NCBI GenBank assembly: GCA_963719945.1
Contig: CAVRDX010000001.1
Span: forward strand, 96,001 to 160,000
From: an uncultured Thermoplasmata archaeon
GTDB taxonomy: Archaea; Thermoplasmatota; Thermoplasmata; UBA10834
DNA: 64,000 bases
Direction of reading: 5' to 3'
Shown piece after piece: positions 43,110 to 63,074 of this stretch. Positions within the stretch are counted from its first letter, which is position 1. The number at the start of each line of letters is the position of its first letter. Under the pieces are notes generated by a model. That model made no database searches, was not told the DNA's origin, and saw only the letters and a program-made list of their open reading frames with translations. The position numbers and the translations under genes were made by a program.

Positions 43110-43194
43110 GCGAGGGTAGCCAAGCCCGGTCAAAGGCGACAGACTCAAGATCTGTTCTCGCAGGGGTTCCCCGGTTCAAATCCGGGCCCTCGCA
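43110..43194 (+). tRNA. tRNA-Leu(CAA), intronless, CCA not encoded
   Basis: Acceptor GCGAGGG/CCCTCGC-A, anticodon arm ACAGA-CTCAAGA-TCTGT, long variable arm, T-arm CCCGG-TTCAAAT-CCGGG; TATA-like TTTAATA about 30 nt upstream. Confidence 0.96.
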
Positions 43195-43283
43195 CATTAT
43201 TATTCTAAATGCGTAAATTATATTGTGTCACAGTTCAAATCAGGATCATGTAATGGTCCCGAACTCTGCAGCAGAAGTTCTAA

Positions 43284-46209: not shown

Positions 46210-46323
46210 TTCTTTACCATCAACGAATTCAGGAAACTCATGATTCGCGTTTAGCTTTGAAGTTTATAGCTGGCAGTATTAATTAGGGGTAAATTCCAGG
46301 CTGAAATCCGGGCCCTCGCACAT
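46210..46323 (+). repeat. att-like repeat R2
   Basis: 114-bp copy; 46304-46331 is identical to tRNA end plus flank 43178-43205. Confidence 0.95.
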
Positions 46324-46348
46324 TATTATTCATAATGATGGATGATTG

Positions 46349-47209
46349 TCAAGTTGTTCGATGGCTCGCTGCACCGTGTGCTCGCTTGGGTGATTTGATC
46401 CGATGGGGTCGCACCTTTCTGTCGACCACTATCTGATTGTTCTTTTCGAGATAGTCTAGGCACTCTCTGATAAATGCAGGGGTTTCCCTCAATTCGGTTG
46501 AGAGTCCATCGACCGAGTTCATCCCCTTGTCAATTAGTGTGAGCAACCGCTGGGCACCCATCTTCAATTCCGCTCTTGTCTTCAGTGCTCGTTTCCAGGG
46601 GACTTTCACACCGTATCTCCTTTCCATCTCATCGAGCTTCGTGAGAAGGAACGCCTCCCAGATGCTGCTCTTTCTCAGCCCTTCGGGATCAGTCTGATTA
46701 TCGCACTCCTCTAGGATGATATCGCGGCTCAATCCTTTTCTGAACAACGCGATCATGTCGTCAAGGTCTCTTGATCTCTCAGTTACGCTCTTGAGCAGGA
46801 ATATATCTTCTCGCGAACAAATATACAGAACAAGTTCTCCCCATTCGTCAACCCGCTCTGCTCTTCGAATCATCCCTTCGGAGAGCCTTAGTTTGTTACA
46901 GATCCTTTCGGCGAAGATGTCGGCTCGCACCCCTCCTGAAGCGGACAATATTGTCGCGTCTACAAGTGCGTGACATTCCTGTGGATGCCTGGTATTGACA
47001 TCGAATCCTAGCGATTCGAAAGCTCTCTTGAGTTCCTGCGCTTCAAGCGATGATCGCACTATCAGATCCAAGTCCTTGGTAGCATCCTTCTCGCCTCTGA
47101 GCGCCATTGCTCCACCTCCCACCAAGTAGACTTGGATTCTCATGCTGCAGATATTCCCGACCTTCTCCATTATTGAAAGGACCTCTGATTTGCTGATTTG
47201 GGCCGGCAT
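46349..47209 (-). CDS. Nucleotidyltransferase (DUF6036/AbiEii-like) with C-terminal HTH (cassette 3)
   Basis: VGGGAM...KDATKDLD, LLK...R.RDLDD. Confidence 0.7.
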   Translation of the reverse strand: MPAQISKSEVLSIMEKVGNICSMRIQVYLVGGGAMALRGEKDATKDLDLIVRSSLEAQELKRAFESLGFDVNTRHPQECHALVDATILSASGGVRADIFAERICNKLRLSEGMIRRAERVDEWGELVLYICSREDIFLLKSVTERSRDLDDMIALFRKGLSRDIILEECDNQTDPEGLRKSSIWEAFLLTKLDEMERRYGVKVPWKRALKTRAELKMGAQRLLTLIDKGMNSVDGLSTELRETPAFIRECLDYLEKNNQIVVDRKVRPHRIKSPKRAHGAASHRTT

Positions 47210-47212
47210 CGT

Positions 47213-48133
47213 TCACTTCACCCCATATTGTATTCGTAATTCCTGCATATCCGACCTGCTAGGGAATAGCAGGTTCTCGACGTCTTCACCATCGAGGTAT
47301 TTTATCATCAGTTCGGATAGTTCCCCCACCCCCATCGCATCTCCTTGTCTACGTAGGTATCCTGACCTGTAGCCACTCTTGAACAGGAAGAGCAAGCTGT
47401 ATGCGATGCCTCTTGAGCTGCTTGGATCTATCAGGATGTTGTGGAGGGCGATATCCTCTGGTTTCAGACTCGGTCGCCAGTATGCATAGTGGTAATACTT
47501 CGTATCCGAAATGAACTGAAGTCCGCGTTGCGACATTGCTGTTACCCCAGTGCTGCGAATTCCAGATGTGTCTTTCAACTCTCGGGACGCGAATATAAAC
47601 TGAAGCCCTTCGCACCAGAGTATCCTCCCTGCCGAGGTGATGTCATCGAGGACCGCGGCGCACGCTCCTCTGGAGAAGTCCTGTAGAAATCGTGTTAGTA
47701 TCTTGTCTGATTGAGGAATCGAAATCACATCGCCATCCTGGACAACTGCTGCAAATCCTTTCAATGCCCAGACGATTCTGCGAACAGATTCTGGAGCAAG
47801 TCGCGTTTCAGTTGCGATTCTTCCGAGCGTCTTTTGATTACTTGAGGCCGAGAGCATGACGAGGAGCCTGGAACCAATCAGTGGTTCGATTGCACGAGAA
47901 TTTCCTTCTAGATATGTTGCCAGTGCTTTTGAGTGACCATGCGAGCTTATGAAGATTATATTGATCTTCCCTTCTCTCCGACTTGTCACAAGCTTCTTTG
48001 ACGATAGAGACTGGATTATTCTGTAGATTGAGATATTCGATAGGCCCGTATCTTCTATTAATGCAGCTGCTGATACATGACCATCGCATACTGACTTGAA
48101 TACTCGGAGTTCATTCTTGTTTAGAATATACAT
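47213..48133 (-). CDS. wHTH transcriptional regulator / putative antitoxin (cassette 3)
   Basis: HTH pattern TGLSNISIYRIIQSL..KKLV; likely start MYILNK at 48133; palindrome TCAATATTGA at 48172-81 upstream. Confidence 0.65.
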   Translation of the reverse strand: MYILNKNELRVFKSVCDGHVSAAALIEDTGLSNISIYRIIQSLSSKKLVTSRREGKINIIFISSHGHSKALATYLEGNSRAIEPLIGSRLLVMLSASSNQKTLGRIATETRLAPESVRRIVWALKGFAAVVQDGDVISIPQSDKILTRFLQDFSRGACAAVLDDITSAGRILWCEGLQFIFASRELKDTSGIRSTGVTAMSQRGLQFISDTKYYHYAYWRPSLKPEDIALHNILIDPSSSRGIAYSLLFLFKSGYRSGYLRRQGDAMGVGELSELMIKYLDGEDVENLLFPSRSDMQELRIQYGVK

Positions 48134-48327
48134 TGTGTGCAATAATTGATTGTTCATATATATAGAATTTATCAATATTGACACAAATGTTGCGGTTCAA
48201 TGAATATCAAAGCGTCGTGATATCCCTTCATCTTCTGCCGCTAGAGTACCAGGGTAGCAATCATCAAGGTCCATTCCATTTTGAACTCAGCTTGACAATA
48301 TGACTCTGGAATAATCTGATATCCTAT

Positions 48328-48441
48328 TTCTTTGCCATCAAAAAATTCGGAGAAATCAAGGATCGCATTTGGCTTCGAAGATTCTAGCTGGCAGTTTTAA
48401 TTAGGGGTAAATTCCGGGTCATAATCCGGGCCCTCGCACAT
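48328..48441 (+). repeat. att-like repeat R3
   Basis: 114-bp copy with intact core. Confidence 0.95.
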
Positions 48442-48697
48442 TTTAATTTCAAAGATGGGATTTATGTGCAAATCAACACCCTGCACTTCGGTATTCTCAC
48501 AAGCCCATTGACATGCCACCTTGTTTGAAGGATGTTGACCATCTATCTCTCTGAGGTTGCGTACCTGATCAGAGGTATTGGACAGTGGAGCGAGCAATCT
48601 CGGGCGGTATAGTCCATATGATGTGCCTGCGGCGTTTGACATGTCGCGGAAAATCTTCTATAGCTGCAAGAGCCATTGGGTTGAGGGAGGTTCGTCT

Positions 48698-49333
48698 GTG
48701 AATGCTGAACGCGCTTCGCCAGTTGAGGGACCGGAACGCAATTGGTCGACTCGGAAGAAGATATATGTGATTGTGATTGTCACAGCAGTCATAGCGTCCT
48801 TCTCAATGTGGTCTTTCTACGAATTCTACCTGGAGGAGCAAAGAGTTGCAGGGTTCGACTCTTATGTGAAGATCAGCTACACCGTTTCTATCGCATGCAA
48901 TTCCTCCGATCAATACAGGGTTCTCTGCCCGTTGCCTGTCGATTCAGAGGGGTGTGTTTGGCCCCTAACTCAGGGATATCTATATGTCACTGGAAATTCG
49001 ACCACGAGTATTGCGATGACAGAGTATGGTGAAGCCCTTGAAATCACAGGCAGTGGCGTCACAATAATCACCATGAATATTCGCTCGACGCTCACTGATC
49101 CTTTTGAGAACCTGACTCGCTACTGGCACCTCAGCTTGATGGAATCCAACACGGAATTGGGGTTTCGTGCGAATCTGTATTCTGACCACGAAGATGTGTT
49201 GTTTGGGCTGGTGTTCGACTATGACTTTGTCTACGGCAACTGTGGAGCGAACTTCATCGGTGATGAGTGCATAGGCAGTCTGAACAATGGGTGGAACACA
49301 TTATCTGTTGATCATAGTGGGGGAGTCGCCTGA
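48698..49333 (+). CDS. Membrane-anchored exported hypothetical protein (cassette 4)
   Basis: GTG start after GGAGG; RKK then one TM; beta-rich ectodomain. Confidence 0.6.
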   Translation: MNAERASPVEGPERNWSTRKKIYVIVIVTAVIASFSMWSFYEFYLEEQRVAGFDSYVKISYTVSIACNSSDQYRVLCPLPVDSEGCVWPLTQGYLYVTGNSTTSIAMTEYGEALEITGSGVTIITMNIRSTLTDPFENLTRYWHLSLMESNTELGFRANLYSDHEDVLFGLVFDYDFVYGNCGANFIGDECIGSLNNGWNTLSVDHSGGVA

Positions 49334-49417
49334 TCATTGAATTCTAGGTCTATGTCCATGAACTCCAAGGGAGTTCCGAAGAAGTAATATCTCTCCGCCT
49401 ATGTTCTCGCCTGTCGA

Positions 49418-49531
49418 TTTTCTACCATCAAAGAATTCGGAGAATTCACGGATCGCATTCGGTTTTGAAGATTATAGCTGGCAGTTTTAATTAGGGGTAA
49501 ATTCTGGGCTATAATCCGGGCCCTCGCACAT
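49418..49531 (+). repeat. att-like repeat R4
   Basis: 114-bp copy with intact core. Confidence 0.95.
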
Positions 49532-49753
49532 TATTATTTATGAACCGGGATTCAAAGGTGGCCCAAAACTGCGTATTCGTTACGATTATTTCCAGGACCA
49601 GCTAATCTGGCGTGGTCGATTAGGTGACAATGGCATGATAAATATGCTTACAACAGTCTTCTGATGGTCTGAAATATTTATTTAGTATGATATGTTACGA
49701 TGCCTGCCCAGCAGTGATGGGGGGTTTTGCTTCACTGCTAAAGGAGAGATTCT

Positions 49754-50953
49754 ATGGAGCCTGGAAGTACAGGATTTATGCTTGTGGCAACGAGCCTTGT
49801 CATGCTGATGACGCCTGGCTTGGCTTTTTTCTATGGTGGACTTGTTGGACGAAAGAATGTGCTCACAATAATGATGCAGAGCTTTGTATCGATGGGGGTT
49901 ACGACAATCATCTGGGTCACAGTCGGATTCTCGCTGTGTTTCAGTGGTGATGTAGGCGGGATTATCGGGAATCTCGATAATGCGTTTCTAATGGGGCTTG
50001 ACTTGAACACTCCGTTCACTGCAGATATCCCGGTATTCGTCTTTATCGCATACCAAATGATGTTTGCTGTCATTACGCCTGCTCTGATCACTGGCGCGTT
50101 CGCTAACAGGGTCAAATTCCCAGCTTATCTCATATTCCTGGTGGCATGGTTGCTACTGGTCTACTTCCCAATGGCCCACATGATATGGGGCGGTGGTATC
50201 CTTGCTCAATGGGGCGTTCTCGATTTCGCAGGTGGTATCGCAGTCCACGCCATCGCGGGTATGGCCGCTCTCGCATCCGTTTTCTTTGTCGGCGCGAGAA
50301 AGGACAAGCCTTCTGGTCCTCATAGCATCCCATTGGTTGCGCTCGGCACGGGGCTTCTGTGGTTCGGCTGGTATGGATTCAATGCTGGTAGCGAGCTGAG
50401 AGTGGATGAGGTAACGGTCACTGCATTCCTGAACACCGATATCGCAGCGTCCTTCGCAGCGATATCATGGCTTATCTTGGCTTGGACTCTTGAGAAGAAG
50501 CCGAAATTCCTTGGGCTGCTCACGGGCGCGGTCGCAGGGCTGGCGACGATAACTCCTGCTGCGGGGTTCGTGACTCCGCAGGCTGCGATGGTCATCGGTC
50601 TTTTGGCGGGTGTGATATGCTACTTTGCTGTGGCGCTGAAGAACAAGAGGCATTGGGATGATGCTCTCGATGTATGGGGCGTTCACGGTGTCGGTGGCAT
50701 TGTCGGAGTGGTCTGTCTAGGATTATTCGCAACGCTGGAAGTCAACAGCGCGGGTGCGAACGGTCTGTTCTATGGCGACGCTCGCTTCTTCGCGGTCGAG
50801 ATAGTCGCGGTTGTCATCGCTTCCGTGTATGCCTTCGTATTCACATACATAATGCTGCACGTGATTAACAAGATCACGCCTGTCAGAGTGAGCGATGCGG
50901 ATGAACTGACTGGTCTGGACCAGACGGAGCACGGTGAGGAAGCGTACGTGTGA
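49754..50953 (+). CDS. amt: Ammonium transporter (cassette 5)
   Basis: MTPGLAFFYGG, DFAGG..VH, WFGWYGFNAGS, DDALDV..VHG. Confidence 0.97.
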   Translation: MEPGSTGFMLVATSLVMLMTPGLAFFYGGLVGRKNVLTIMMQSFVSMGVTTIIWVTVGFSLCFSGDVGGIIGNLDNAFLMGLDLNTPFTADIPVFVFIAYQMMFAVITPALITGAFANRVKFPAYLIFLVAWLLLVYFPMAHMIWGGGILAQWGVLDFAGGIAVHAIAGMAALASVFFVGARKDKPSGPHSIPLVALGTGLLWFGWYGFNAGSELRVDEVTVTAFLNTDIAASFAAISWLILAWTLEKKPKFLGLLTGAVAGLATITPAAGFVTPQAAMVIGLLAGVICYFAVALKNKRHWDDALDVWGVHGVGGIVGVVCLGLFATLEVNSAGANGLFYGDARFFAVEIVAVVIASVYAFVFTYIMLHVINKITPVRVSDADELTGLDQTEHGEEAYV

Positions 50954-51105
50954 AACCGTGCGGAACCAGCGTAGTGGGCGAGGCCAAATCTGGTTCAACA
51001 AACCTTTTTCGCTGTTTCAATTGCTCCTCGAGTTTGAATGGGGATCACTAGTTCTATTTTTGATGGCGGTCCAGGAGAAAGCATGAGTTACTACATTGCA
51101 TCGTG

Positions 51106-51765
51106 TCACTTCTCTACCCTTTCTCCGGTCTTCATATAGACCGTCCGTTCAGCGATGTTACATGCATGATCAGCTATCCTCTCAAGATATCTCGCAACGA
51201 ACTGATAGTTCATCCCCATCGTGATGTTCGCAGAGTTCTCCATCATGTATATCAGAACTTCTCGGAATATCTCATCGTACAGAGAGTCGACCCTGTCTTC
51301 AAGGATGAAGACCTCTTCTGTCTTATCCAGGTCTCCCTCGAGGAATGATTCGACGGCTAGGTCGACCATGGATACGGCCATCTCTGATATCCTGGGTATG
51401 CTTACGAGCACTTTGAAATGGCGAAGGTTAGATGCCTTTGCTCTCTCCGTTATCTCTGCGATATCTTTCGCGTACCTCACGATCCTGTCGAAGTCGGTGG
51501 TGATCTTCAGGCTCGTGGTCACATATCTGAGATCACCGGCAACTGGTGCGTGCAAGGCGATTATCTTGACAATCTCCTTCTCAGTCTTGACGAGAATCTC
51601 ATACGCCTTTTCGTCCAACTCTCTGACCCTCTCAACGAGCGAGAGGTCCAGATCCTCAAAGGATTTAGCAGCCAGGGTTATGGCCTCTCGGGCCATGGAT
51701 CCCATCATGTTCATTCTCTCTCCGAGCTCATTCAGCTCATCTTGATATGCTTTCCTCGGCGACAT
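51106..51765 (-). CDS. phoU: Phosphate signalling protein PhoU (cassette 5)
   Basis: PVAGDLR, LERIADHA.NIAE. Confidence 0.92.
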   Translation of the reverse strand: MSPRKAYQDELNELGERMNMMGSMAREAITLAAKSFEDLDLSLVERVRELDEKAYEILVKTEKEIVKIIALHAPVAGDLRYVTTSLKITTDFDRIVRYAKDIAEITERAKASNLRHFKVLVSIPRISEMAVSMVDLAVESFLEGDLDKTEEVFILEDRVDSLYDEIFREVLIYMMENSANITMGMNYQFVARYLERIADHACNIAERTVYMKTGERVEK

Positions 51766-51769
51766 GTTA

Positions 51770-52537
51770 TCACCCGAACCTCCCTGTAATGTATCTCTCT
51801 GTCAACTCTTCTTCTGGATTCTCGAATAGTCTCTTTGTCTTGTTGAACTCTATCAGTTCTCCAAGATACATGAATGCCGTCCAATCGGCCACACGTGCTG
51901 CCTGTTGCATGTTGTGTGTGACTATGATGACCGTGTAATCATTCTTCAAGTCGAATATGAGATCCTCTATCTTGGAAGTGGCAATGGGATCCAACGCGGA
52001 GCACGGCTCGTCCATGAGAAGTACCTCTGGTTCTATTGCCATGGCGCGCGCAATGCACAATCTCTGCTGTTGTCCCCCCGATATGCTAACACCTGAAGCG
52101 TCCAAGTTATTCTTCACCTCGTCCCAAAGAGCCGCTTGCTTTAAACTTCTCTCGACCTGCTCCTCTATGAACGCCTTATCTCTGATGCCGTTCATTCTCA
52201 GTCCGTAGGCGACATTATCGAATATCGATGCGTTGGGGAACGGGTTCGGTTTCTGGAAAACCATTCCGACTCGTCTCCTGACATCGACTGGATTGGTCCC
52301 TCTCGAATAGATATCCTCTCCATCGAGCAACACCTCTCCGGTCACCCTCGCCCCTGGAACGATCTCATGCATCCTATTCAAGCATCTGATGAACGTCGAC
52401 TTGCCGCACCCCGACGGTCCTATGATTGCTGTTGCACGGTTTGCCTTGACCTTGATGTTGATTCCTTTGACTGCCTTGTTCGAGCCGAAGTATGCGTCGA
52501 GTTCTCTTGTCTCTATCTTCGCTGACGATTCTCCCAT
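51770..52537 (-). CDS. pstB: Phosphate ABC transporter ATPase
   Basis: [32 protein letters not shown]. Confidence 0.97.
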
Positions 52538-52540
52538 GTG

Positions 52541-53404
52541 TCAATGCCTCCTCTTAAACAGATGTCTGCCTCCATGGGCAATTATCCTCACTGTGATGTT
52601 CAGACCAAGTACGAGCAATATCAGGAATGCGCTCGCTCCCCACGCTAGATCGTGCCAGTTATCGAAAGGAGATATTGCGAATTGGTAGATCAGCACGGGC
52701 ATCGATGCCATCGGCTGGGACAAGGTCGTTGGGTAGAACACGGTCCATCCGACAGTGAGCAGCAATGGTGCAGATTCTCCCGTTATCCGTGCAATGGACA
52801 GCATTATGCCAGTTATGATGCCTGGTTTGCCATTCGAAAGAACAACCTTCCTTATCGTTGCGGAACGGCTAACTCCCAGGGATAGCGATGCTTCCCTGAG
52901 CGATGTCGGCACAAGCTTGAGCGCCTCCTCGGTCGTCCTTGCGACGACTGGTATCATAATGATCGAGAGTGCCAATCCTCCTGCGAATGCATTCGGGCCT
53001 CCGAGGGAAACCACCAGGACGAGATAGGCGAATATACCGATGATTATGGATGGGAAACCAGCAAGCACATCCATGACGAAACGGACGATCCTTCCGAACA
53101 AGTTGTCTCCATATTCTGACACGAATATACCAGATACGATTCCGATTGGGATTCCAATCAACGAACCGATTCCAATGGCTGCCAAGGTGCCGACAATGGC
53201 CGGTCCTATCCCTCCGACCTCATCGCTCCCTGGTGGTGGTATGGTTCCTGTCAGAAACTCGAATGAGAACTGCGGCAACCCTTTGATCAGCACATCCACG
53301 AGTATGCTTACTAGCGGGACCAGAGCAGCGATGACGCACGCGACCGCTGCGAGCGTTGCCAGTCTGTCCTTTATCATCCTCTTTCGGAAGCCCTTGGAGT
53401 TCAT
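52541..53404 (-). CDS. pstA: Phosphate ABC transporter permease PstA
   Basis: PSIIIG, ARITGESAPLL; ATGA overlap with pstC. Confidence 0.95.
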   Translation of the reverse strand: MNSKGFRKRMIKDRLATLAAVACVIAALVPLVSILVDVLIKGLPQFSFEFLTGTIPPPGSDEVGGIGPAIVGTLAAIGIGSLIGIPIGIVSGIFVSEYGDNLFGRIVRFVMDVLAGFPSIIIGIFAYLVLVVSLGGPNAFAGGLALSIIMIPVVARTTEEALKLVPTSLREASLSLGVSRSATIRKVVLSNGKPGIITGIMLSIARITGESAPLLLTVGWTVFYPTTLSQPMASMPVLIYQFAISPFDNWHDLAWGASAFLILLVLGLNITVRIIAHGGRHLFKRRH

Positions 53405-54420
53405 TCGACTCTGACCCTCCCCACCTTCGTCACTCGACTGAGCAAGATTCGACCAGCCACATTTATCGCTAGCATGAGTACAAACAGTACAAGCCCTACT
53501 CCAATCAGTGCGGATTGTTGAACTGTTCCGGATGGTGCCTCCCACCAGTTGGTCGCGATGAGGCTGGATAGGGTCTGTCCTGGATCGAGAAGTGACCACG
53601 AGAATGAATTCACATTTCCTATGACCATGGTGACCGCCATGGTCTCTCCGACTGCTCTTCCAAGCCCCAGTACGGCAGCTCCGAATATTCCTGATCGTGC
53701 ATAGCTAATAGCGACTGTTCCGATCATCTCGTATCTTGTCGCTCCCAATGCCAATGCAGCTTCCTTCTGGGATGTTGGCACTGCCTTGAGTGCATCCCTT
53801 GAAATCGCTGAGATGGTAGGTATTATCATTATTGCCAGAATCACGGCTGCGCTCAGCTTGTCTATCCCGAAAGTCCTTCCTTCGAAGAACGGCAGGAAGC
53901 CCAAGCTTCCTTGGAGGAACGGTTCCACCTGACCCCTCATGAACCCTCTTAGCGTGAATATCCCCCAGATGCCGAAGACGACGCTGGGAACGGCTGCGAG
54001 CATCTCTACGAGGAATCCCAATGGCGTGCCGATCCATTTGGGTGCGATCTCGGAGATGAATATTGCAATCCCCACGCTGATGGGGACTGCTATCATCATC
54101 GCCACAGCGGATGTGTAGAGTGTCCCACCGATGAACGGAAGCGCTCCAAATACCCCTTGATTAAAACTCCATGTGCTCCCTGTGAAGAATTTGTACCCCA
54201 TCGAATCCAGCACCGGAAAGGCTCCCTCGATGAGGTAGCCTACGACCCAAGCGAATATCGCGACAGCTGAGAATGCGAGGATCCCACAGAATAGCTGGAA
54301 CCGGCCGTCCGAGGTCAGGATGAGCTGGTTCAATGTCTCCTTCAACCCATCCATTCTAGCAGACGGAGGATTCCGGCCATTATGGGCTGAATCATTGGGG
54401 CCGCCTTCTTCACTATTCAT
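53401..54420 (-). CDS. pstC: Phosphate ABC transporter permease PstC
   Basis: PSVVFGIWG, GRAVGETMAV. Confidence 0.95.
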   Translation of the reverse strand: MNSEEGGPNDSAHNGRNPPSARMDGLKETLNQLILTSDGRFQLFCGILAFSAVAIFAWVVGYLIEGAFPVLDSMGYKFFTGSTWSFNQGVFGALPFIGGTLYTSAVAMMIAVPISVGIAIFISEIAPKWIGTPLGFLVEMLAAVPSVVFGIWGIFTLRGFMRGQVEPFLQGSLGFLPFFEGRTFGIDKLSAAVILAIMIIPTISAISRDALKAVPTSQKEAALALGATRYEMIGTVAISYARSGIFGAAVLGLGRAVGETMAVTMVIGNVNSFSWSLLDPGQTLSSLIATNWWEAPSGTVQQSALIGVGLVLFVLMLAINVAGRILLSRVTKVGRVRVE

Positions 54421-55564
54421 TGTACAAAGGCTCCCCGTCACATACTATGGATCTCAGAGTCTCCTCGTTGAGCTCGACTACTTCAGAGGGTAATGGCGCA
54501 TAGTAGAGACTGTCTGAATACTCCTGTCCATCATGCACCATCCACCACAGGAAATCCACAAGCGCCTTTCCTTTCTGGTTGTCCGCTTGTTCCTTGTATA
54601 CGAGTATGTATGTGAAGCTGGCTATCGGATACGAATCATCTCCAGGTGCATTCAAAATCTCAACGCCGTCCCAGCTCTCATCCCCAGCCGGCAGAGTGGC
54701 CGCGCTTGCTGCAGCGGCTGCAACAGTGGATTCAGTTGACGGAAGCACGAAGAGCCCCTCCAAATTCTGAATGGCTGCGTAATCGATTTCGTTCTCAATC
54801 GCATACGAGAGCTCGAGGTACCCTATGCTGTATGGTGTCGTGGACATCGCGCCTGCGACTCCTCCGTTTCCGGTACCCCCTATGGTCTCAGTTGGCCAGT
54901 CGATGGTCTTCGATGCTCCATATAACTCCATCCAAGTCTCGTTCACCTTCGAAAGATAGGAACTCCAGATGAATGTCGTTCCACTGCCATCCGCTCTCCT
55001 GACTACGGTTATCGGTTCGTCCGGAATGGTCAGGCCAGGGTTGATTGAAGCAATCTCGGGATCGTTCCAGTTCGTGATGTTGAGCATGAATATCCCGGCA
55101 ATCACATCTCCAGTAAGGTTCAGGCCATTGTCCAGCTCGGGAACATTGTATGCACATACCACTGCGCCCAATGTCTCCGGTATGTGAAGTAGTCCAAGAT
55201 CATCCTTGTCGGTCGTGAGCGGAGCATCCGTTCCGGCGAAATCCACGAGATTATCGACTATTCTGCTTATTCCTCCACTGCTTCCAACCCCTTCATAGCT
55301 CACCCTCACAGAGGTCTCATTTTCGTAGACCTGTACCCACTTCGAAATCAATGGAAATGGGAAGGTCGCTCCCGCACCAGATAATGTGACGTTATCATTT
55401 TCATGGGAGTTTAGAATCTGCAGAGCAAAAACCACTCCGATTAGTAGAGCAACGATGGCGGTTGCCATCACCAACTTCATCGGCTTTATTTTTCCGCGAT
55501 TCTTCTGGGCTGCAGCAATTCTTCCACGGACATCAGTTGAATCTTTATTCGTTTCTTCGCTCAT
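54413..55564 (-). CDS. pstS: Phosphate-binding protein PstS
   Basis: GAGATFP, GSSGG, DFAGTD, RADGSGTT, YPI. Confidence 0.96.
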   Translation of the reverse strand: MSEETNKDSTDVRGRIAAAQKNRGKIKPMKLVMATAIVALLIGVVFALQILNSHENDNVTLSGAGATFPFPLISKWVQVYENETSVRVSYEGVGSSGGISRIVDNLVDFAGTDAPLTTDKDDLGLLHIPETLGAVVCAYNVPELDNGLNLTGDVIAGIFMLNITNWNDPEIASINPGLTIPDEPITVVRRADGSGTTFIWSSYLSKVNETWMELYGASKTIDWPTETIGGTGNGGVAGAMSTTPYSIGYLELSYAIENEIDYAAIQNLEGLFVLPSTESTVAAAAASAATLPAGDESWDGVEILNAPGDDSYPIASFTYILVYKEQADNQKGKALVDFLWWMVHDGQEYSDSLYYAPLPSEVVELNEETLRSIVCDGEPLYNE

Positions 55565-55679
55565 TGTATCACCTGCGGTCTTCTTGCTTTCTCTGTCTCT
55601 TCAATGATCAGCAGGCGACCATTGGCGCTTGAATGTTCAGAGCCTAGATGTCATTGTCAAACTGTGTCAAGCCATCGCA

Positions 55680-55745
55680 TATATAGAAGTATAGTCTCTA
55701 TATAGAAAGCAATAATATCACCTCGTGCCAATGTGTGTATATAGA
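55680..55745. promoter_or_regulatory. Triple TATATAGA motif in the divergent pstS/regulator promoter
   Basis: Copies at 55680-87, 55699-706, 55738-45. Confidence 0.5.
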
Positions 55746-55755
55746 GTCCAATTAA

Positions 55756-56775
55756 TTGGTGTTGATACCTTTGCAGGAATCTAGGCGAATTCAAAAGACC
55801 GGAGGGTCGACCTACACGATCTCCCTCCCGAAGAGATGGGTGGTGGACTCCGGTCTGAAAAAGGGCGATTTTCTATTAATGACGATAGGCAGTGATGGAT
55901 CACTTTCGATAGATTCTGTTTCTCCCCGAGAGACCGAGAAGTTGACGAAAGAGATATCAGTCGATAGCAAGACTGATCCACGAACATTGCTGAGACAGCT
56001 TATCGGTGCATATGTCACGGGTCATGACGTGATTCATGTGAGATCCAATTCCAGAATTCTCCCTGAGATTAGAAGGGCTGTTCAGGATTTCTCAAGAAGG
56101 GTGATTGGCCCTGAGATTATCGAAGAGAGTTCCAACCATATTGTTGTGCAAGATGTCGCTGACCATGCTGACCTGGCCATGCGGAAGGTCGTCCGCCGAA
56201 TGCACCTGATGGTGAAGAACATGTTCGAGGAGGCAGTGAGGGCAGTCGATAGTATGGACGTCACTCTTGCTGATGAGGTCATCGCAAGGGATGATGAGGT
56301 TGATCGACTTCATTGGTTCGTGGAGAAACAGCATGCGACTATCCGTCGTAATGTATCATTTGCGGTCAAGATGAAGATGAGCTGGTTGGAGTCCGACGTA
56401 CTGCTTTCCACGGCGAAATCGTTAGAGAGGATAGCGGACCACGCTGTTCGAGTCGCGCACAGCGTTCGATTGCTCAAGACATCGAAGGTGGATCGCGTGG
56501 TGATATCAGACCTCGAGCGATTGAGTAGTGGTGCGGTCTCAATCCTCGATGACAGTATCGAAGCCTTGTTCAAGAGCGATTCTATCCTTGCCAACAAGTG
56601 TCTGGATCGGTCATCCAGTCTTCAAGACGAGATAAACAAGTTCCTTGAGGGTGCGATGACCCGACGGGGGAAGGTTGCAGTCGGGCTGGCATTTGCAGCT
56701 GAGAGTGTATCACGAGCTTGTGGGTATTCATCGGATATCGCAGAGACTGCTATCAACCTCGCAGAAGGGCAATAA
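55756..56775 (+). CDS. Archaeal phosphate uptake regulator (AbrB-like N-terminus plus PhoU domains)
   Basis: RRIQKTGGSTYTISLPKRW, DDEVDRL, LERIADHA. Confidence 0.9.
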   Translation: MVLIPLQESRRIQKTGGSTYTISLPKRWVVDSGLKKGDFLLMTIGSDGSLSIDSVSPRETEKLTKEISVDSKTDPRTLLRQLIGAYVTGHDVIHVRSNSRILPEIRRAVQDFSRRVIGPEIIEESSNHIVVQDVADHADLAMRKVVRRMHLMVKNMFEEAVRAVDSMDVTLADEVIARDDEVDRLHWFVEKQHATIRRNVSFAVKMKMSWLESDVLLSTAKSLERIADHAVRVAHSVRLLKTSKVDRVVISDLERLSSGAVSILDDSIEALFKSDSILANKCLDRSSSLQDEINKFLEGAMTRRGKVAVGLAFAAESVSRACGYSSDIAETAINLAEGQ

Positions 56776-56917
56776 TCATCAGCAACTTTCCTGTCTTCGC
56801 TTCACATTTTGATCCCTATGTAACGCCAGCTCTCATCTCTGCAGATTCGACCCTGATGACTGAGGCTGTTTCTAATGGCAGTTCTCTACAGCGCAATGAA
56901 TCGGCTTTATCGTTCAT

Positions 56918-57031
56918 TTCTTTACAATCAAAGAAATCGATGAATTCATGATTCGCAATTAGCTTTGAAGATTATAGCTGGCAGTTTTAATTGGGGGTAA
57001 ATTCCGGGCTATAATCCGGGCCCTCGCACAT
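56918..57031 (+). repeat. att-like repeat R5
   Basis: 114-bp copy with intact core. Confidence 0.95.
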
Positions 57032-57231
57032 TTTAATATTTGCGAAAAGATTTACGTTCATGCAGATGCCGGATCGAGAGCAAGCCCGTATCGGCATCAT
57101 TCGGTGCCCCCGAAGTGATTATATTCAGCAATTATATCTCATCACTGCTGAGCGTCGGAGAGGCCTTTCAACATTGGGATTGGAATCATGGATGAGTCGC
57201 TCTTATCGTTCTAAGTAGGCCAACTGGTGAA

Positions 57232-57786
57232 ATGATGGATTTCGTCACGGTGATTCTAATTGCGATTGGGCTATCCATGGATGCTTTTGCAGTTTCAATT
57301 GCCAAAGGAATATCTGTAAATAAGAACAGAAGAAGATCCGCAATCCTATTGGCTTCTCTTTTTGGAGGGTTTCAAGCGCTGATGCCCGTAATCGGTTGGT
57401 TTGCAGGTCTGGGCCTAAGGGACATAATCATGGGAGTCGACCATTGGATTGCATTTGGGCTACTCGGGCTCATTGGCGCAAAGATGATCTACGACTCAAC
57501 GAACGGTGAAGATGGTAAGGAGGAAGATGTTACAATATTCGCGGCACTCGTCCTCGCAGTTGCGACCAGCATCGATGCTTTGATGGTTGGTCTCAGTTTC
57601 GCATTCTTGGAGACACCTATCTTGATCCCCGTCCTGATCATTGGAGCAGTAACCTTTGTGCTATCTTATCTGGGATTCATATTCGGCTCAAGGATGGGAA
57701 GCATCTTCGGCAAGAAGGTAAAGATTCTTGGCGGCCTTATCCTCATATTAATCGGGATACGGATCTTGATAGAGCACTTACTATAG
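57232..57786 (+). CDS. mntP: Manganese efflux pump MntP (cassette 6)
   Basis: LSMDAFAVS, FQALMP, DHWIAF, ATSIDAL. Confidence 0.95.
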   Translation: MMDFVTVILIAIGLSMDAFAVSIAKGISVNKNRRRSAILLASLFGGFQALMPVIGWFAGLGLRDIIMGVDHWIAFGLLGLIGAKMIYDSTNGEDGKEEDVTIFAALVLAVATSIDALMVGLSFAFLETPILIPVLIIGAVTFVLSYLGFIFGSRMGSIFGKKVKILGGLILILIGIRILIEHLL

Positions 57787-57886
57787 ACAACCGGGAGTTC
57801 AAGGGCTACATCCATTGTCATCGATTGATTGATATTGATCGTGGGGGTCGAATCCCATCAACATTGCCCCTTGATGACTGGTTCAT

Positions 57887-58000
57887 TTCTTTACCATCAA
57901 AGAATTCGGAGAATTCAAGAACCACATTTGGCATTGAAGATTATAGCTGACAGTTTTAATTGGGGGTAAATTCCGGGCTATAATCCGGGCCCTCGCACAT
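57887..58000 (+). repeat. att-like repeat R6
   Basis: 114-bp copy with intact core. Confidence 0.95.
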
Positions 58001-58054
58001 TTTAATAATCTGGCGTGAATTAATGTGTGGGTGTTGTCTGCTCCGAATGCTTTA

Positions 58055-59476
58055 CTACCTCTTTCCTCCAATCGATTCTTGCGTCGAGAGGAGGAGTCTC
58101 CACAGAGGAAAAAGGGTGATAGCGACATCGCCCAACTCCATGGTCCCCTCTCTGTCTTTCGTGACAAGGTAGGCTTTGTTGCAGCCATGCACTTCACAGA
58201 ACCTCGCAAGTCCCTTCGCGTCAGATTTGTAGATGCTGGTCTGGTACTTGAGTTCGATTGGAACAGGACCGTGTCTTGATGGCAGCACTATGTCAACCTC
58301 GTTCCCCTGCGGGTCTCTCCAGAAGAAGACCTGTGACGTCCTTGAGAGGTGGTTGTACGCGGCGGTTTCCGCCAACCTTCCGAGTTCCTGACTTCCAGTC
58401 ATATCATCCAGTCCAAGAAGGGCACTGATCAATCCAGTGTCCGTGAGATATGCCCGTTTCGAGGATCGCGCCTGTTTGACCATGCTCTTGGTGTAGTTGT
58501 AGCAGGTCGAGAAGAGCATCGCCCGCTCCAGGATAGAAAGGTACTTCGAGGCCGTTTGTGCCTTCATTCCTATGTCCGGTGCGATGTTGGCGATCTCGAA
58601 CATTTGAGAACTCATGGAGGCGAGTATCTTCAGGAGGTGCATCATGCTCGCAGGGTTCGCGATGCTCTCAGTCTCGGGAAGGTCGTGATACACCACTCTG
58701 TCCAAGACGGATTGCCGGATGTATCTGTGTACCTTTGTGATGGGTTGCATGCCGACCGTCTCCGGATATCCCCCTCTGACCAGGTAGTTGGTCAATGCGT
58801 TCGTGACCTCGTTCTGAATGAGCATGAATGACTCCGGGACCGGAGCGCCCGACCCTATGGGTGGGATTCGTGGCACCTCAATCCCTTTGAACGCCAGATA
58901 TTCTCGGAAAGACAAAGTCGGAATGGTGATATCGAACGCCCTTCCCGCAAGGCTCTCGCCCATGCCCTTCCTCAACCCGAGCGACGACGATCCTGATGCG
59001 AATATCTTCACGTTCGGTTTCGTCTCATAGATGCGCTTGAGGATGGTAGGCCATTCATTAATGAACTGTATCTCGTCGAGGAACAGGAATACCGGGTTCT
59101 TCTTCGAAGGCTTGGTTGGAACTACGTTCTCAAGGAAGTATGATACGACATCCTCGAGGATTGTGTGTTCCCTCGATAGGACTTCGTCAAAGGAGAAGTA
59201 CATAGTGTTCTTGGAATTGACGCCCCTGTCGAGCAAATCCTGCATCGTCTTGGTGATTGCCGTGGTCTTCCCCGACCTCCTCGGCCCCGTGACAAGGACA
59301 ATCTGTCGGTCATCGGCGAAGCTTGTCAACTCCTCAATCGATTCCCTCTGGATGATTTCTTCAACGTGCTCAGCGAGGGATTCACCTCTCCACTGTGGAT
59401 TCGAGATCACTATCTGTCTCACGAGCCTTTCGTTCACGGTGAATCGATATAATTGTGAGTTTATAATGATTTCCAA
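58055..59476 (-). CDS. AAA+ ATPase (AAA_14) with DUF4143 / PD-(D/E)xK C-terminus (cassette 7)
   Basis: NPQW, GPRRSGKT, LDEIQ, SGSS, GGYP, DTGL, EVD...IELK; start uncertain. Confidence 0.88.
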   Translation of the reverse strand: MEIIINSQLYRFTVNERLVRQIVISNPQWRGESLAEHVEEIIQRESIEELTSFADDRQIVLVTGPRRSGKTTAITKTMQDLLDRGVNSKNTMYFSFDEVLSREHTILEDVVSYFLENVVPTKPSKKNPVFLFLDEIQFINEWPTILKRIYETKPNVKIFASGSSSLGLRKGMGESLAGRAFDITIPTLSFREYLAFKGIEVPRIPPIGSGAPVPESFMLIQNEVTNALTNYLVRGGYPETVGMQPITKVHRYIRQSVLDRVVYHDLPETESIANPASMMHLLKILASMSSQMFEIANIAPDIGMKAQTASKYLSILERAMLFSTCYNYTKSMVKQARSSKRAYLTDTGLISALLGLDDMTGSQELGRLAETAAYNHLSRTSQVFFWRDPQGNEVDIVLPSRHGPVPIELKYQTSIYKSDAKGLARFCEVHGCNKAYLVTKDREGTMELGDVAITLFPLWRLLLSTQESIGGKR

Positions 59477-59625
59477 TATATCTAAATGTGTTATTGGGCT
59501 TCAACTGCTCCACAGACAGCACCTGCAACGCTACCAGCTCGACCCTTAGTTCGGCAGCCGATCTCGCTGGCGATGCCCTCGAGATCGCCGAGACAGCGGT
59601 CGACACTGTCGAGAAGCTCGCCTCG

Positions 59626-59739
59626 TTTTTTACCATCAAATAATTCGGAGAATTCACGGATCGCATTCGGTTTTGAAGATTATAGCTGGCAGTTTTAATT
59701 AGGGGTAAATTCCGGGCTATAATCCGGGCCCTCGCACAT
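59626..59739 (+). repeat. att-like repeat R7
   Basis: 114-bp copy with intact core. Confidence 0.95.
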
Positions 59740-59764
59740 TATTATTCATAATGATGGATGATTG

Positions 59765-60625
59765 TCAAGTTGTTCGATGGCTCGCTGCACCGTGTGCTCG
59801 CTTGGGTGATTTGATCCGATGGGGTCGCACCTTTCTGTCGACCACTATCTGATTGTTCTTTTCGAGATAGTCTAGGCACTCTCTGATAAATGCAGGGGTT
59901 TCCCTCAATTCGGTTGAGAGTCCATCGACCGAGTTCATCCCCTTGTCAATTAGTGTGAGCAACCGCTGGGCACCCATCTTCAATTCCGCTCTTGTCTTCA
60001 GTGCTCGTTTCCAGGGGACTTTCACACCGTATCTCCTTTCCATCTCATCGAGCTTCGTGAGAAGGAACGCCTCCCAGATGCTGCTCTTTCTCAGCCCTTC
60101 GGGATCAGTCTGATTATCGCACTCCTCTAGGATGATATCGCGGCTCAATCCTTTTCTGAACAACGCGATCATGTCGTCAAGGTCTCTTGATCTCTCAGTT
60201 ACGCTCTTGAGCAGGAATATATCTTCTCGCGAACAAATATACAGAACAAGTTCTCCCCATTCGTCAACCCGCTCTGCTCTTCGAATCATCCCTTCGGAGA
60301 GCCTTAGTTTGTTACAGATCCTTTCGGCGAAGATGTCGGCTCGCACCCCTCCTGAAGCGGACAATATTGTCGCGTCTACAAGTGCGTGACATTCCTGTGG
60401 ATGCCTGGTATTGACATCGAATCCTAGCGATTCGAAAGCTCTCTTGAGTTCCTGCGCTTCAAGCGATGATCGCACTATCAGATCCAAGTCCTTGGTAGCA
60501 TCCTTCTCGCCTCTGAGAGCCATTGCTCCACCTCCCACCAAGTAGACTTGGATTCTCATGCTACAGATATTCCCGACCTTCTCCATTATTGAAAGGACCT
60601 CTGATTTGCTGATTTGGGCCGGCAT
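59765..60625 (-). CDS. Nucleotidyltransferase, second copy (cassette 8)
   Basis: Protein identical to 46349-47209. Confidence 0.7.
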   Translation of the reverse strand: MPAQISKSEVLSIMEKVGNICSMRIQVYLVGGGAMALRGEKDATKDLDLIVRSSLEAQELKRAFESLGFDVNTRHPQECHALVDATILSASGGVRADIFAERICNKLRLSEGMIRRAERVDEWGELVLYICSREDIFLLKSVTERSRDLDDMIALFRKGLSRDIILEECDNQTDPEGLRKSSIWEAFLLTKLDEMERRYGVKVPWKRALKTRAELKMGAQRLLTLIDKGMNSVDGLSTELRETPAFIRECLDYLEKNNQIVVDRKVRPHRIKSPKRAHGAASHRTT

Positions 60626-60628
60626 CGT

Positions 60629-61549
60629 TCACTTCACCCCATATTGTATTCGTAATTCCTGCATATCCGACCTGCTAGGGAATAGCAGGTTCTCGACGTC
60701 TTCACCATCGAGGTATTTTATCATCAGTTCGGATAGTTCCCCCACCCCCATCGCATCTCCTTGTCTACGTAGGTATCCTGACCTGTAGCCACTCTTGAAC
60801 AGGAAGAGCAAGCTGTATGCGATGCCTCTTGAGCTGCTTGGATCTATCAGGATGTTGTGGAGGGCGATATCCTCTGGTTTCAGACTCGGTCGCCAGTATG
60901 CATAGTGGTAATACTTCGTATCCGAAATGAACTGAAGTCCGCGTTGCGACATTGCTGTTACCCCAGTGCTGCGAATTCCAGATGTGTCTTTCAACTCTCT
61001 GGACGCGAATATAAACTGAAGCCCTTCGCACCAGAGTATCCTCCCTGCCGAGGTGATGTCATCGAGGACCGCGGCGCACGCTCCTCTGGAGAAGTCCTGT
61101 AGAAATCGTGTTAGTATCTTGTCTGATTGAGGAATCGAAATCACATCGCCATCCTGGGCAACTGCTGCAAATCCTTTCAATGCCCAGACGATTCTGCGAA
61201 CAGATTCTGGAGCAAGTCGCGTTTCAGTTGCGATTCTTCCGAGCGTCTTTTGATTACTGGAGGCCGAGAGCATGACGAGGAGCCTGGAACCAATCAGTGG
61301 TTCGATTGCACGAGAATTTCCTTCTAGATATGTTGCCAGTGCTTTTGAGTGACCATGCGAGTTTATGAAGATTATATTGATCTTCCCATCTCTCCGACTT
61401 GTCACAAGCTTCTTTGACGATAGAGACTGGATTATTCTGTAGATTGAGATATTCGATAGGCCCGTATCTTCTATTAATGCAGCTGCTGATACATGACCAT
61501 CGCATACTGACTTGAATACTCGGAGTTCATTCTTGTTTAGAATATACAT
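60629..61549 (-). CDS. wHTH regulator, second copy (cassette 8)
   Basis: Differs from the first copy at three residues (E/D, S/N, V/A). Confidence 0.65.
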   Translation of the reverse strand: MYILNKNELRVFKSVCDGHVSAAALIEDTGLSNISIYRIIQSLSSKKLVTSRRDGKINIIFINSHGHSKALATYLEGNSRAIEPLIGSRLLVMLSASSNQKTLGRIATETRLAPESVRRIVWALKGFAAVAQDGDVISIPQSDKILTRFLQDFSRGACAAVLDDITSAGRILWCEGLQFIFASRELKDTSGIRSTGVTAMSQRGLQFISDTKYYHYAYWRPSLKPEDIALHNILIDPSSSRGIAYSLLFLFKSGYRSGYLRRQGDAMGVGELSELMIKYLDGEDVENLLFPSRSDMQELRIQYGVK

Positions 61550-61743
61550 TGTGTGCAATAATTGATTGTTCATATATATAGAATTTATCAATATTGACAC
61601 AAATGTTGCGGTTCAATGAATATCAAAGCGTCGTGATATCCCTTCATCTTCTGCCGCTAGAGTACCAGGGTAGCAATCATCAAGGTCCATTCCATTTTGA
61701 ACTCAGCTTGACAATATGACCCTGGAATAATCTGATATCCTAT

Positions 61744-61857
61744 TTCTTTGCCATCAAAAAATTCGGAGAAATCAAGGATCGCATTTGGCTTCGAAGATTC
61801 TAGCTGGCAGTTTTAATTAGGGGTAAATTCCGGGTCATAATCCGGGCCCTCACACAT
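61744..61857 (+). repeat. att-like repeat R8 (arm identical to R3; core G>A)
   Basis: Core reads CCCTCACACAT. Confidence 0.93.
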
Positions 61858-61937
61858 TTCAATTCTTGATTCCAAATATCCATTGTGGCACCGTCTATGC
61901 CATCATCTTCTATCCTCCGTTCAAGGGTGCTTTCTCC

Positions 61938-61987
61938 TACCCTTACATATTGCATGCATTAGAAAACTATATGCATATGTAAGGGTA
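61938..61987. promoter_or_regulatory. 13-bp perfect inverted repeat upstream of the Fic gene
   Basis: TACCCTTACATAT-N24-ATATGTAAGGGTA with a TATA-like AACTATAT inside. Confidence 0.6.
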
Positions 61988-61996
61988 TGAGATGTC

Positions 61997-62893
61997 ATGG
62001 TCGTCATTAGGAAGAAGACGGTCGATGGTCGGGAGTACTTTTATCTCCAGCACACTATCAGAACTCCCTCGGGCGTTCAAACCCGTGAGAAGTATCTTGG
62101 AGCGAAATTGCCTCACGATGTCGAGGCTTCAAAGAGGGACTTCCTTACAGAGATTTACAGAGAGCGATGGTATCCACTTCTGGATCAGGTTCGTTCGAAC
62201 TACCAGAAGGAGAAGCGTGCACTACCACCTAGCACCCTCCAGAAGCGTGATCGCCAATTCTCAATCAAGTTCACATATGATACGAATCGCATCGAAGGTT
62301 CGAGACTCACTTATCGTGAAACGGCTGATTTGCTCGAGAGAGGACTGAGTCCAAGCCAGAAACCGATTGAGGACATCAAGGAAGCCGAGGCCCACGACAG
62401 AGTCTTCCGGGAAGCGCTGCGATACAAGAAAGACCTGTCACTGCAGACGATCTTGATGTGGCACAAGAAGCTGTTCGAGGAGACGAAGCCAGATATAGCA
62501 GGGAGAGTCAGGACTTACCAGGTGGCAATCTCTGGGAGCCGATTCATGCCTCCTAGCCCCGTCGAAATCCAACCATTGCTCAGAGAATTCTTCCGATGGT
62601 ATAATCGGAACAAACCTTCCATGCACCCAGCCGAGTTGGCTGCTGGAGTTCATCTGAGATTCGTGACAATACATCCGTTTGCCGATGGAAACGGCAGGAT
62701 GAGCCGTCTCCTAATGAACTTCGTATTGCATCGAAACGGATATCCTCCTCTGAATATTCCGTATGAGGGTCGTCGGGGCTACTACAATGCGCTTGAGCGG
62801 TCCCAGGTGAAGGAGAGCGACAGCACCTTCATTCAGTGGTTCTTCAAGAGGTATCTCAAGGAATACTCAACATACACCATGACCACGAAGTGA
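61997..62893 (+). CDS. Fic family protein (cassette 9)
   Basis: HPFADGNGRMSR catalytic motif; TNRIEG inhibitory-type motif. Confidence 0.93.
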   Translation: MVVIRKKTVDGREYFYLQHTIRTPSGVQTREKYLGAKLPHDVEASKRDFLTEIYRERWYPLLDQVRSNYQKEKRALPPSTLQKRDRQFSIKFTYDTNRIEGSRLTYRETADLLERGLSPSQKPIEDIKEAEAHDRVFREALRYKKDLSLQTILMWHKKLFEETKPDIAGRVRTYQVAISGSRFMPPSPVEIQPLLREFFRWYNRNKPSMHPAELAAGVHLRFVTIHPFADGNGRMSRLLMNFVLHRNGYPPLNIPYEGRRGYYNALERSQVKESDSTFIQWFFKRYLKEYSTYTMTTK

Positions 62894-62907
62894 TTTCTTC
62901 AGGACCG

Positions 62908-62997
62908 TTTCTTACCATCAAAAGAATTCAAGAATCACATTTAGCTTTGAAGAATATAGTTGGCAGTTTCAATTAGGGGTAAATTCCAGGCCAATCC
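62908..62997 (+). repeat. Degenerate terminal repeat R9
   Basis: Arm recognisable with an internal deletion; ends AAATTCCAGGCCAATCC and lacks GGGCCCTCGCA. Confidence 0.88.
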
Positions 62998-63074
62998 CTG
63001 GAACGTCAAGGGCCTTCAATTCGTCTCAGTGTGAGATGTGAAGTCATTCTAGATGGCGATGCTCTTCGGTCTGT

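Follow-up and report, generated by a model that had tools for sequence, protein, structure and literature searches.

What is the movable unit in a row of genes that are separated by copies of a tRNA 3' end, and how does such a unit come to occupy a new position? The question is raised by a 64,000-nucleotide stretch of DNA from an uncultured Thermoplasmata archaeon (hereafter the window), in which nine short gene cassettes follow one another behind a gene for tRNA-Leu(CAA) and one of them, cassette X, is present twice. The window covers positions 96001-160000 of contig 1, the 906-kb contig carrying both copies of X, in a metagenome-assembled genome (MAG; labelled G000) of 1.78 Mb that comprises 4 contigs and is 87% complete. 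The archaeon is of the Methanomassiliicoccales type, its named relatives being Methanomassiliicoccales-type Thermoplasmatota MAGs of soil and peat origin. We favor, with a probability of roughly 60%, the explanation that X is a non-autonomous integrative cassette, which is moved by site-specific recombination located in a core derived from the tRNA, with an Xer-like integrase acting in trans. The duplicate constitutes a natural experiment, which without sequencing reads defines the movable unit and narrows the point of exchange to ~25 nt of the tRNA tail.

Two copies of cassette X delimit the movable unit

An 18-nt core (43179-43196), consisting of the final 17 nt of tRNA-Leu(CAA) and one additional nucleotide, is common to all junctions of the array. 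Nine such cores, all in direct orientation, start at 43179, 44537, 46305, 48423, 49513, 57013, 57982, 59721 and 61839, the last of them with one substitution. Thus, direct repeats of the tRNA end bound every unit (~1 to 7.5 kb each), and the tRNA-Leu(CAA) gene itself stays intact. Neither the core nor the conserved arm that precedes it (R1 to R8 in order along the array) has a further occurrence in the 1.78-Mb assembly.

The first-pass annotation of this DNA, made from the letters alone, had pointed to a cassette of 2118 bp core to core that recurs at an offset of 13416, differs between its copies at about nine positions, several of them synonymous, and has four other cassettes between the copies. 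Comparison of the window with itself, position by position at this offset, reproduces each of these values: the segment 46305-48443 equals 59721-61859 except for exactly 9 mismatches (47102, 47147, 47584, 47742, 47843, 47946, 47972, 48305 and 48436), amounting to 99.6% identity or a divergence of 0.42%, and the core-to-core length is the same in both copies. Four of the differences are synonymous, three are non-synonymous and all fall in the gene for a helix-turn-helix (HTH) protein, and the remaining two are non-coding; all four open reading frames (ORFs) across the two copies are intact. The intervening cassettes, namely those with an unknown ORF, the amt-pst genes, MntP and an ATPase (48423..59720), make up the 13,416-bp repeat period together with copy 1. 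The first copy is flanked by the NosD and unknown-ORF cassettes, and the second by the ATPase and Fic cassettes. A 99.6% match over 2.1 kb cannot be a chance event.

Both edges of the repeat coincide with the core. On the left, 17 mismatches separate the arms that precede the two copies (R2 and R7), those at 46298, 46303 and 46304 (-7, -2 and -1 from the core) among them, so that identity begins at 46305, the first base of the core. On the right, the arms contained in the repeat (R3 and R8) are identical at 100 of 100 positions and display variants seen in no other arm of the genome. The cores that close the two copies differ at a single base (48436, G versus A, core position 14), and the copies diverge at 48444/48449, 5-10 nt beyond this closing core. 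Left of 46200 and right of 48449 identity is ~25%, which is the random level. The earlier description of these edges, with identity starting at the core, distinct upstream arms, a downstream arm with private variants inside the repeat and a breakdown just past the next core, is therefore accurate, and the comparison of the copies with their flanks shows no continuation of the identity through the upstream arms. X keeps its downstream and not its upstream arm, as expected of the proposed unit of core, cargo and arm, with which the edge of the amt-pst cassette in a related genome also agrees (see below). The crossover, which had been mapped to the core, is indeed placed there by both edges, but only to within ~25 nt, i.e. 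the 18-nt core and at most 7 nt beyond its 3' end.

A different view of the nine mismatches would be that they are differences between strains and that no single chromosome holds both copies, the X positions of two strains having been joined by the assembler or by a natural inter-strain crossover. The source is indeed a MAG in four contigs at 87% completeness, a divergence of 0.42% is typical of the strain level, and the assembly graph of the array in the related genome G006 is ambiguous and branches at the same cassettes. However, on the 906-kb contig the context of each copy is unique and continuous, and no switch point is marked in the sequence, which makes this view improbable; even then, X would have held two core-bounded positions, so the inference of the unit survives it.

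The recombination site is long and conserved on both sides of the core

When 26 junctions of four genera are aligned, the sequence proves to be conserved 5' as well as 3' of the core, across both cassettes and genera. The 5' arm of ~95 nt has a TTTACC-type motif at its start and a GGTAAA-type motif ~25 nt before the core, and the core is followed on its 3' side by an A/T-rich octamer and, ~10 nt further on, a GATTTATGT-like tract. The complete conserved site thus measures ~150 nt; every copy has the same orientation, and the site contains no conserved dyad. Each unit accordingly consists of the core, ~40 nt of conserved 3' flank, the cargo and the ~95-nt arm. The arm and core, previously taken to be the whole site, are both conserved, but the site is larger in that the ~40 nt past the core are conserved too. 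RNAalifold predicts only 4 pairs on the 26 sites, with no covariation or compensatory change, and hence no conserved hairpin in the arms. Given the two-sided conservation and the lack of a conserved hairpin, the site looks like a classical double-stranded attP-like site of ~150 nt and not like an attC.

Two other interpretations of the repeats were considered and rejected. An attC-like folding of the arms is ruled out by the lack of conserved structure and by a 9-bp inverted repeat that is not kept, being broken in R1, R3 and R8 and in other arm types. A known RNA family is likewise ruled out, since Rfam finds the tRNA alone.

A second arm type, which is shorter by ~23 nt and contains two ACCGGTAAA-like motifs, occurs in other genera (e.g. 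G020) and also closes the ~30-kb integrase-bearing element of G006 (L038, ~7945). The complete genome G020 contains a stack of seven units (contig 1, 1386000-1405999) with no adjoining tRNA-Leu gene detected by ARAGORN, and a tRNA-Leu-like tail is found ~360 kb from it. In G006 the arm of a second ATPase cassette is joined to a tRNA-Val/Ile-like tail and not to the tRNA-Leu core (contig 3, ~1500-1640; L045). There are thus hints, from such junctions, that arms may be able to pair with more than one tRNA tail.

Cassettes change neighbors between species

The search for X at other positions in related genomes, which had been proposed as a check, finds it with other neighbors in G006, a different species of the genus, where it lies between ATPase and pst cassettes and is 98.3-98.6% identical. 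For comparison, the chromosomal flank of the array is only 93% identical between these two species, and the neighboring cassettes are 92-95% identical. The X, amt-pst and ATPase cassettes have different neighbors in G000, G005 and G006, with amt-pst having a different upstream neighbor in each of the three and its breakpoint at the core. Between G000 and G005 the amt-pst cassettes are identical at 160 of 160 positions from the core onward, whereas the upstream arms are only ~80% alike; as judged from this alignment, the edge is an independent second case of a core-exact boundary. The amt-pst cassette of G000 is 94% identical to that of G005 and 92% to that of G006, where it lacks the 1.5-kb amt part and has a different 3' flank.

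Further contexts of X are few. A scan of metagenomes returned only one contig, which is arranged like contig 2 of G006, and distant homologs of X (51-74%) are mostly without flanking cores. An IMG contig (L089) of nearly the same length as this contig 2 has an almost identical starting point. No other duplicated cassette of at least 250 bp is found in the array stretches of G005, G010, G013, G018, G020 and G036.

The arrangement in G006 might provide a glimpse of a mobile intermediate. Its contig 2 (9877 bp) closes on itself, in the order ATPase-a, X, pst, arm and again the start of the ATPase; the end of contig 8 and the starts of contigs 2 and 3 are the same 141-mer, and the end of contig 2 abuts this node. 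This implies, as far as the assembly can be read, either a path of ATPase-a, X, pst and a second ATPase (8% diverged, 91.9% identity), or a free 9.9-kb circle of three cassettes. With its abutting ends, the ATPase, X and pst contig is therefore a candidate for a multi-cassette circle.

A candidate integrase in sister species

G006 and G018 encode, ~600 bp 3' of tRNA-Leu(CAA), an Xer-like tyrosine recombinase of 325 aa, which is preceded by a 215-aa coiled-coil ORF, and a truncated copy of this integrase is found in G005. Inspection of its sequence reveals motifs resembling the catalytic R, H-x-x-R and Y residues; its score with the integron-integrase model is 53.9 bits, the cut-off being 265. 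The 215-aa ORF has its first likely ATG ~50 nt beyond the core, preceded by a TATA-like tract, and the entire integrase frame is located downstream. An integrase of the SSV type, which is split by integration, was judged unlikely by eye.

Relatives of this integrase were collected from 33 archaeal loci with 6-kb flanks, in Methanothrix, Bathyarchaeia, Methanomassiliicoccales, Methanomethylophilaceae and others. In 19 of these the gene lies at the same ~600-bp distance from a tRNA-Leu, -Glu, -Ser, -Arg or -Gly gene, and in most a TTACC-N-GGTAA-like palindromic motif is present 3' of the tRNA end. The 6-kb flanks of the 33 loci contain no extra tRNA tails, and hence no multi-cassette stacks are seen in them. 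The motif with which the cassette arms open recurs in reverse complement right behind the core in both G005 and G006, which ties the cassette sites to this integrase family.

These features also bear on whether the array could be a platform of the integron or Xer/dif kind, in which an IntI-type enzyme would act on folded single strands or the host XerA on short dif-like sites. Small integrase-free cassettes split by a conserved repeat, XerA-like genes in 6 of the 6 genomes checked and the Xer-like nature of the tRNA-linked integrase are what such a platform might display. However, its sites should differ from those seen here, which are ~150 nt long and direct in every copy, with arms that lack a conserved hairpin or covariation; furthermore, the cassette genes lie on both strands, the integron-integrase score is far below the cut-off and the array in G000 has no flanking integrase gene. 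Such a platform is hence very improbable.

How X might move, and how two copies arose

Under the explanation favored here, X would circulate as a circle made of an ~150-nt attP-like site (arm, 18-nt copy of the tRNA-Leu 3' end and ~40-nt flank) and a two-gene cargo. It would stack behind tRNA-Leu(CAA) by conservative site-specific recombination, with strand exchange taking place within the shared core and regenerating the tRNA; as the exchange would lie inside the core, the integrated unit would read core, cargo, arm. The enzyme would likely be an Xer-like tyrosine integrase supplied in trans by a transient element with this tRNA as its insertion site. The sister species G006 and G018 have such an integrase-bearing element, and G000 does not.

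The relative age of the copies can be estimated from G006. Copies 1 and 2 share 41 differences from the X of G006, and hence parted after the G006 lineage had split off. Copy 2 probably occupies the older position, since the adjacency of ATPase and X is common to G000 and G006 and copy 2 has the G006 state at 7 of the 9 variable sites. A tandem duplication inherited in common with G006 is contradicted by the pattern of divergence: the G000 ATPase is nearer to ATPase-a of G006 (95.2%) than to ATPase-b (92.0%), and it is copy 2, not copy 1, that is nearer to the G006 X. The single-nucleotide differences along X show no clean switch point in their order, and do not separate a Campbell-type crossover from independent mutation. 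The duplication could have arisen by the hop of a single X circle or by a 13.4-kb block, extending from copy 1 to the ATPase, that was inserted or duplicated beside a resident X; we regard the two routes as about equally likely. Re-acquisition, or excision and reinsertion, which the first-pass annotation took the intervening cassettes to imply, is thus one possible route, but a block event, homologous recombination between strains and a chimeric assembly fit the arrangement equally well.

Several observations weigh against site-specific movement of X in trans: 1) No cognate integrase is present in the window or elsewhere in the 87%-complete G000 assembly, whose recombinases are limited to an XerA-like gene product, 31% identical to the integrase of G006, and a 365-aa integrase of contig 2 that is unrelated to it. 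2) The integrase family occurs in just 5 of the 46 family genomes surveyed and is seemingly full-length in only two. 3) Neither a circular junction nor an empty site for X was found in the assemblies. 4) G000 and G006 each have a block enclosed by a repeated cassette, and the cyclic order of X, pst and ATPase is common to the two. A random hop of single cassettes does not predict such a shared order; a hop of X alone accounts for it no better than does a Campbell-type event, in which a multi-cassette circle enters a homologous cassette already in place, or the duplication of a block with subsequent deletion. 5) Only 3 positions distinguish arm R4 from arm R7; the two have in common a 22-nt variant absent from all other loci compared, and their cargo is unrelated both upstream and downstream. 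6) The arm of X differs from its G006 counterpart at ~8 of 95 positions, as against only ~1.5% for the cargo. The likeness of R4 and R7 and the divergence of the X arm together show a pattern of apparent exchange or conversion of arms among cassettes, which homologous recombination would also give. Arm variants described as private to a cassette are therefore to be read with caution; those of R3 and R8 are indeed unique, but R4 and R7, nearly the same sequence beside unrelated cargo, do not conform to this rule.

With regard to the second of these points, 36 family genomes were screened for arm-plus-core repeats, and 28 contain them; the integrase being rare and the repeats common, the cassettes are non-autonomous. 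If they still move, the enzyme they need is one that comes and goes.

Could homologous recombination alone, without a dedicated recombinase, have produced the duplicate? Unequal crossing-over or Campbell-type insertion would then operate between arm-plus-core repeats (~124 nt) or between shared cassettes, and one such route would duplicate the 13,416-bp block from X to the ATPase and then delete all but X from one of the two blocks. The substrates exist, in that the arms are direct repeats of 76-92% identity, R4 and R7 look homogenized inside G000, and the repeated cassette brackets a block of the same cyclic order in G000 and G006; the lack of an integrase in G000 would pose no difficulty either. 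The position of the edges, however, argues otherwise: both fall in the 18-25-nt core window rather than in the 95-nt arms, which hold an equally long perfect tract of ~29 nt, and the same core-exact edge is seen for amt-pst across species. Moreover, two or more events would be required, and an ancestral tandem duplication shared with G006 is at odds with the ATPase and copy 2 identities. We hence consider homologous recombination alone to be an unlikely explanation, and retain movement of X by core-located site-specific recombination as the preferred one.

Cargo of X and composition of the array

The features of the array are listed in Table 1. tRNA genes were called with ARAGORN, RNA families with Rfam, domains with Pfam and defense genes with PADLOC, and further leads came from clusters of the ESM Atlas.

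Table 1. Coordinates (window numbering) of the tRNA gene, cassette units, arms, closing cores and cassette X genes
Feature	Position	Strand	Remarks
tRNA-Leu(CAA)	43110..43195	+	ARAGORN; Rfam tRNA 56.8 bits; intact, attB-like 3' end
Unit 1			two unknown ORFs; first cassette behind the tRNA
Unit 2			NosD-like protein; carries arm R2
Arm R2 (NosD cassette)	46210..46304	+	
Unit 3, cassette X copy 1	46305..48422	+	core 46305-46322, P'-side 3' flank to ~46360, cargo, arm R3 48328-48422
X gene 2, DUF6036 nucleotidyltransferase-like, 286 aa	46349..47209	-	Pfam PF19502, 24 bits vs cut-off 23.6
X gene 1, winged-HTH + HVO_2833_C protein, 323 aa	47213..48184	-	Pfam PF24271, E 3.8e-11
Core closing X copy 1	48423..48440	+	intact; start of unknown-ORF cassette
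Unit 4	48423-49512		251-aa unknown ORF
Arm R4	49418-49512		
Unit 5	49513-57012		amt + pstSCAB-phoU
Unit 6	57013-57981		MntP
Unit 7	57982-59720		AAA_14/DUF4143 ATPase
Arm R7 (ATPase cassette)	59626..59720	+	
Unit 8, cassette X copy 2	59721..61838	+	core 59721-59738, genes 59765-60625(-) and 60629-61600(-), arm R8 61744-61838
Core closing X copy 2	61839..61856	+	one substitution, G to A at core position 14
Unit 9			Fic protein

The two genes of X might possibly encode an AbiE-like (type IV) toxin-antitoxin pair. The gene order and the winged-HTH domain fit such a pair; the DUF6036 match of the putative transferase reaches only 24 bits, and the AbiEii/DUF1814 leads from the ESM Atlas are weak in comparison with its DUF6036 clusters (0.97-0.98). 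The product of gene 2 is identical in the two copies, and that of gene 1 has 3 amino-acid differences. PADLOC gave no match for either X gene, and exact-protein look-ups with both alleles of the HTH protein and with the transferase returned no record.

Defense-like cargo is seen in several cassettes (57982-59720; 61839-63971). The ATPase of unit 7 matches the PADLOC candidate defense family PDC-S01 (E 5e-69), and the Fic protein of unit 9 (61997-62893, Pfam Fic domain) matches PDC-S04 and SoFic at E about 1e-30. On the 3' side of unit 9 there is a decayed repeat, followed by a second Fic gene (Pfam), which also flanks the array in G005. The amt-pst cassette of 7.5 kb encodes amt, pstSCAB, phoU and a regulator with a PhoU/MazE domain, with counterparts in L040 (5365-12878) and L037 (G006 contig 2, 3794-9776); no remnant of a site is visible in the interval from amt to phoU.

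Outside the window, G000 has a second small stack behind tRNA-Arg(TCG) (contig 4, 316095-318650), with two extra tail copies at 316970 and 318632, each 3' of an arm. The two arms are alike and unrelated to those of the tRNA-Leu array. A further copy of a tRNA-Val-like tail is found at 863865 of contig 1.

Significance and comparison with known systems

Little is known of the trade in accessory genes among the uncultured Thermoplasmatota of soil and peat. The genes traded here are those for ammonium and phosphate uptake and manganese export along with defense- and toxin-antitoxin-like genes, and integrase-free cassette stacks may be a common route for such trade in archaea. In combination with the species comparisons, the row of repeats becomes a testable system, with arm, core and 3' flank as the substrate, the G006 and G018 integrase, along with the 215-aa ORF that precedes it, as the candidate enzyme and the 3' end of tRNA-Leu(CAA) as the target. 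That additive islands form at tRNA genes is already known as a general principle; what is particular here is the family-wide long site at every junction, the very small size of the cassettes, an identifiable family of putatively trans-acting integrases and a duplicate that delimits the unit. With respect to the features by which tRNA-targeting integrative elements are recognized, the array has repeats of the tRNA end and a variable order with breakpoints in the core, and lacks an integrase within the element or beside the tRNA.

Tandem accretion is familiar from integrative and conjugative elements, integrative and mobilizable elements and cis-mobilizable elements, in which att-bounded, recombinase-free units lie beside an integrase-bearing element and excision in cis as well as in trans is possible, whether of one unit or of a composite. 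Those systems are bacterial and linked to conjugation, and nine short cassettes on one long conserved site would be atypical among them.

The additive flexible genomic islands of Alteromonas occupy tRNA-gene hotspots, with cassettes whose number and order vary by strain, partial tRNA repeats downstream of the inserts and near-identical cassettes in different species (PMC4898812). The present array resembles them in its tRNA hotspot, variable cassettes, partial tRNA repeats and sharing across species. It differs in being archaeal, in having an ~150-nt conserved site at every junction rather than a mere scrap of tRNA, in cassettes as small as 1 kb and in its candidate trans-acting integrase. In archaea, tyrosine recombinases of viruses and plasmids re-use tRNA sites and thereby form arrays, and the integrated elements are often without an integrase (PMC8371274, PMC6563490); the described cases are multi-gene elements in twos or threes, and not family-wide stacks of one- or two-gene cassettes. 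The tycheposons of Prochlorococcus employ tRNA-targeting Xer-like tyrosine recombinases and form tandem stacks split by partial tRNAs, in which older units are displaced outward by newcomers, with genes for nitrogen and phosphate uptake among the cargo (bioRxiv 10.1101/2020.12.28.424599). Nutrient-uptake cargo is also present here in the form of the amt and pstSCAB-phoU cassette. However, tycheposons carry their own integrase and replication module, both of which are missing from 9 of the 9 units in the array; none of these encodes an integrase, a primase or a helicase.

Modules that exploit Xer recombination at dif-like sites (integrative mobile elements exploiting Xer, or IMEX, and pdif modules) have sites of ~28 bp with two inverted half-sites, in contrast to the ~150-nt direct sites without a conserved dyad described above. 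The array resembles integrons in that small exchangeable cassettes, some of them toxin-antitoxin-like, are stacked in order, and in the plausible excision of several cassettes at a time; it differs from them in lacking IntI, the attC hairpin and an attI/Pc platform, in its mixed gene orientation and in its tRNA anchor. The array thus lacks the defining features of an integron, an Xer/dif module or a tycheposon. We tentatively suggest, at somewhat less than even odds, that this family related to Methanomassiliicoccales keeps a true cassette-exchange system, in which miniature integrase-free units with ~150-nt attP-like sites, derived from an element with a tRNA-targeting Xer-like integrase, would be mobilized in trans, singly or as multi-cassette circles, and exchanged between species. 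If so, it would be an archaeal counterpart of the integron that works on double-stranded DNA and depends on the arms of its sites.

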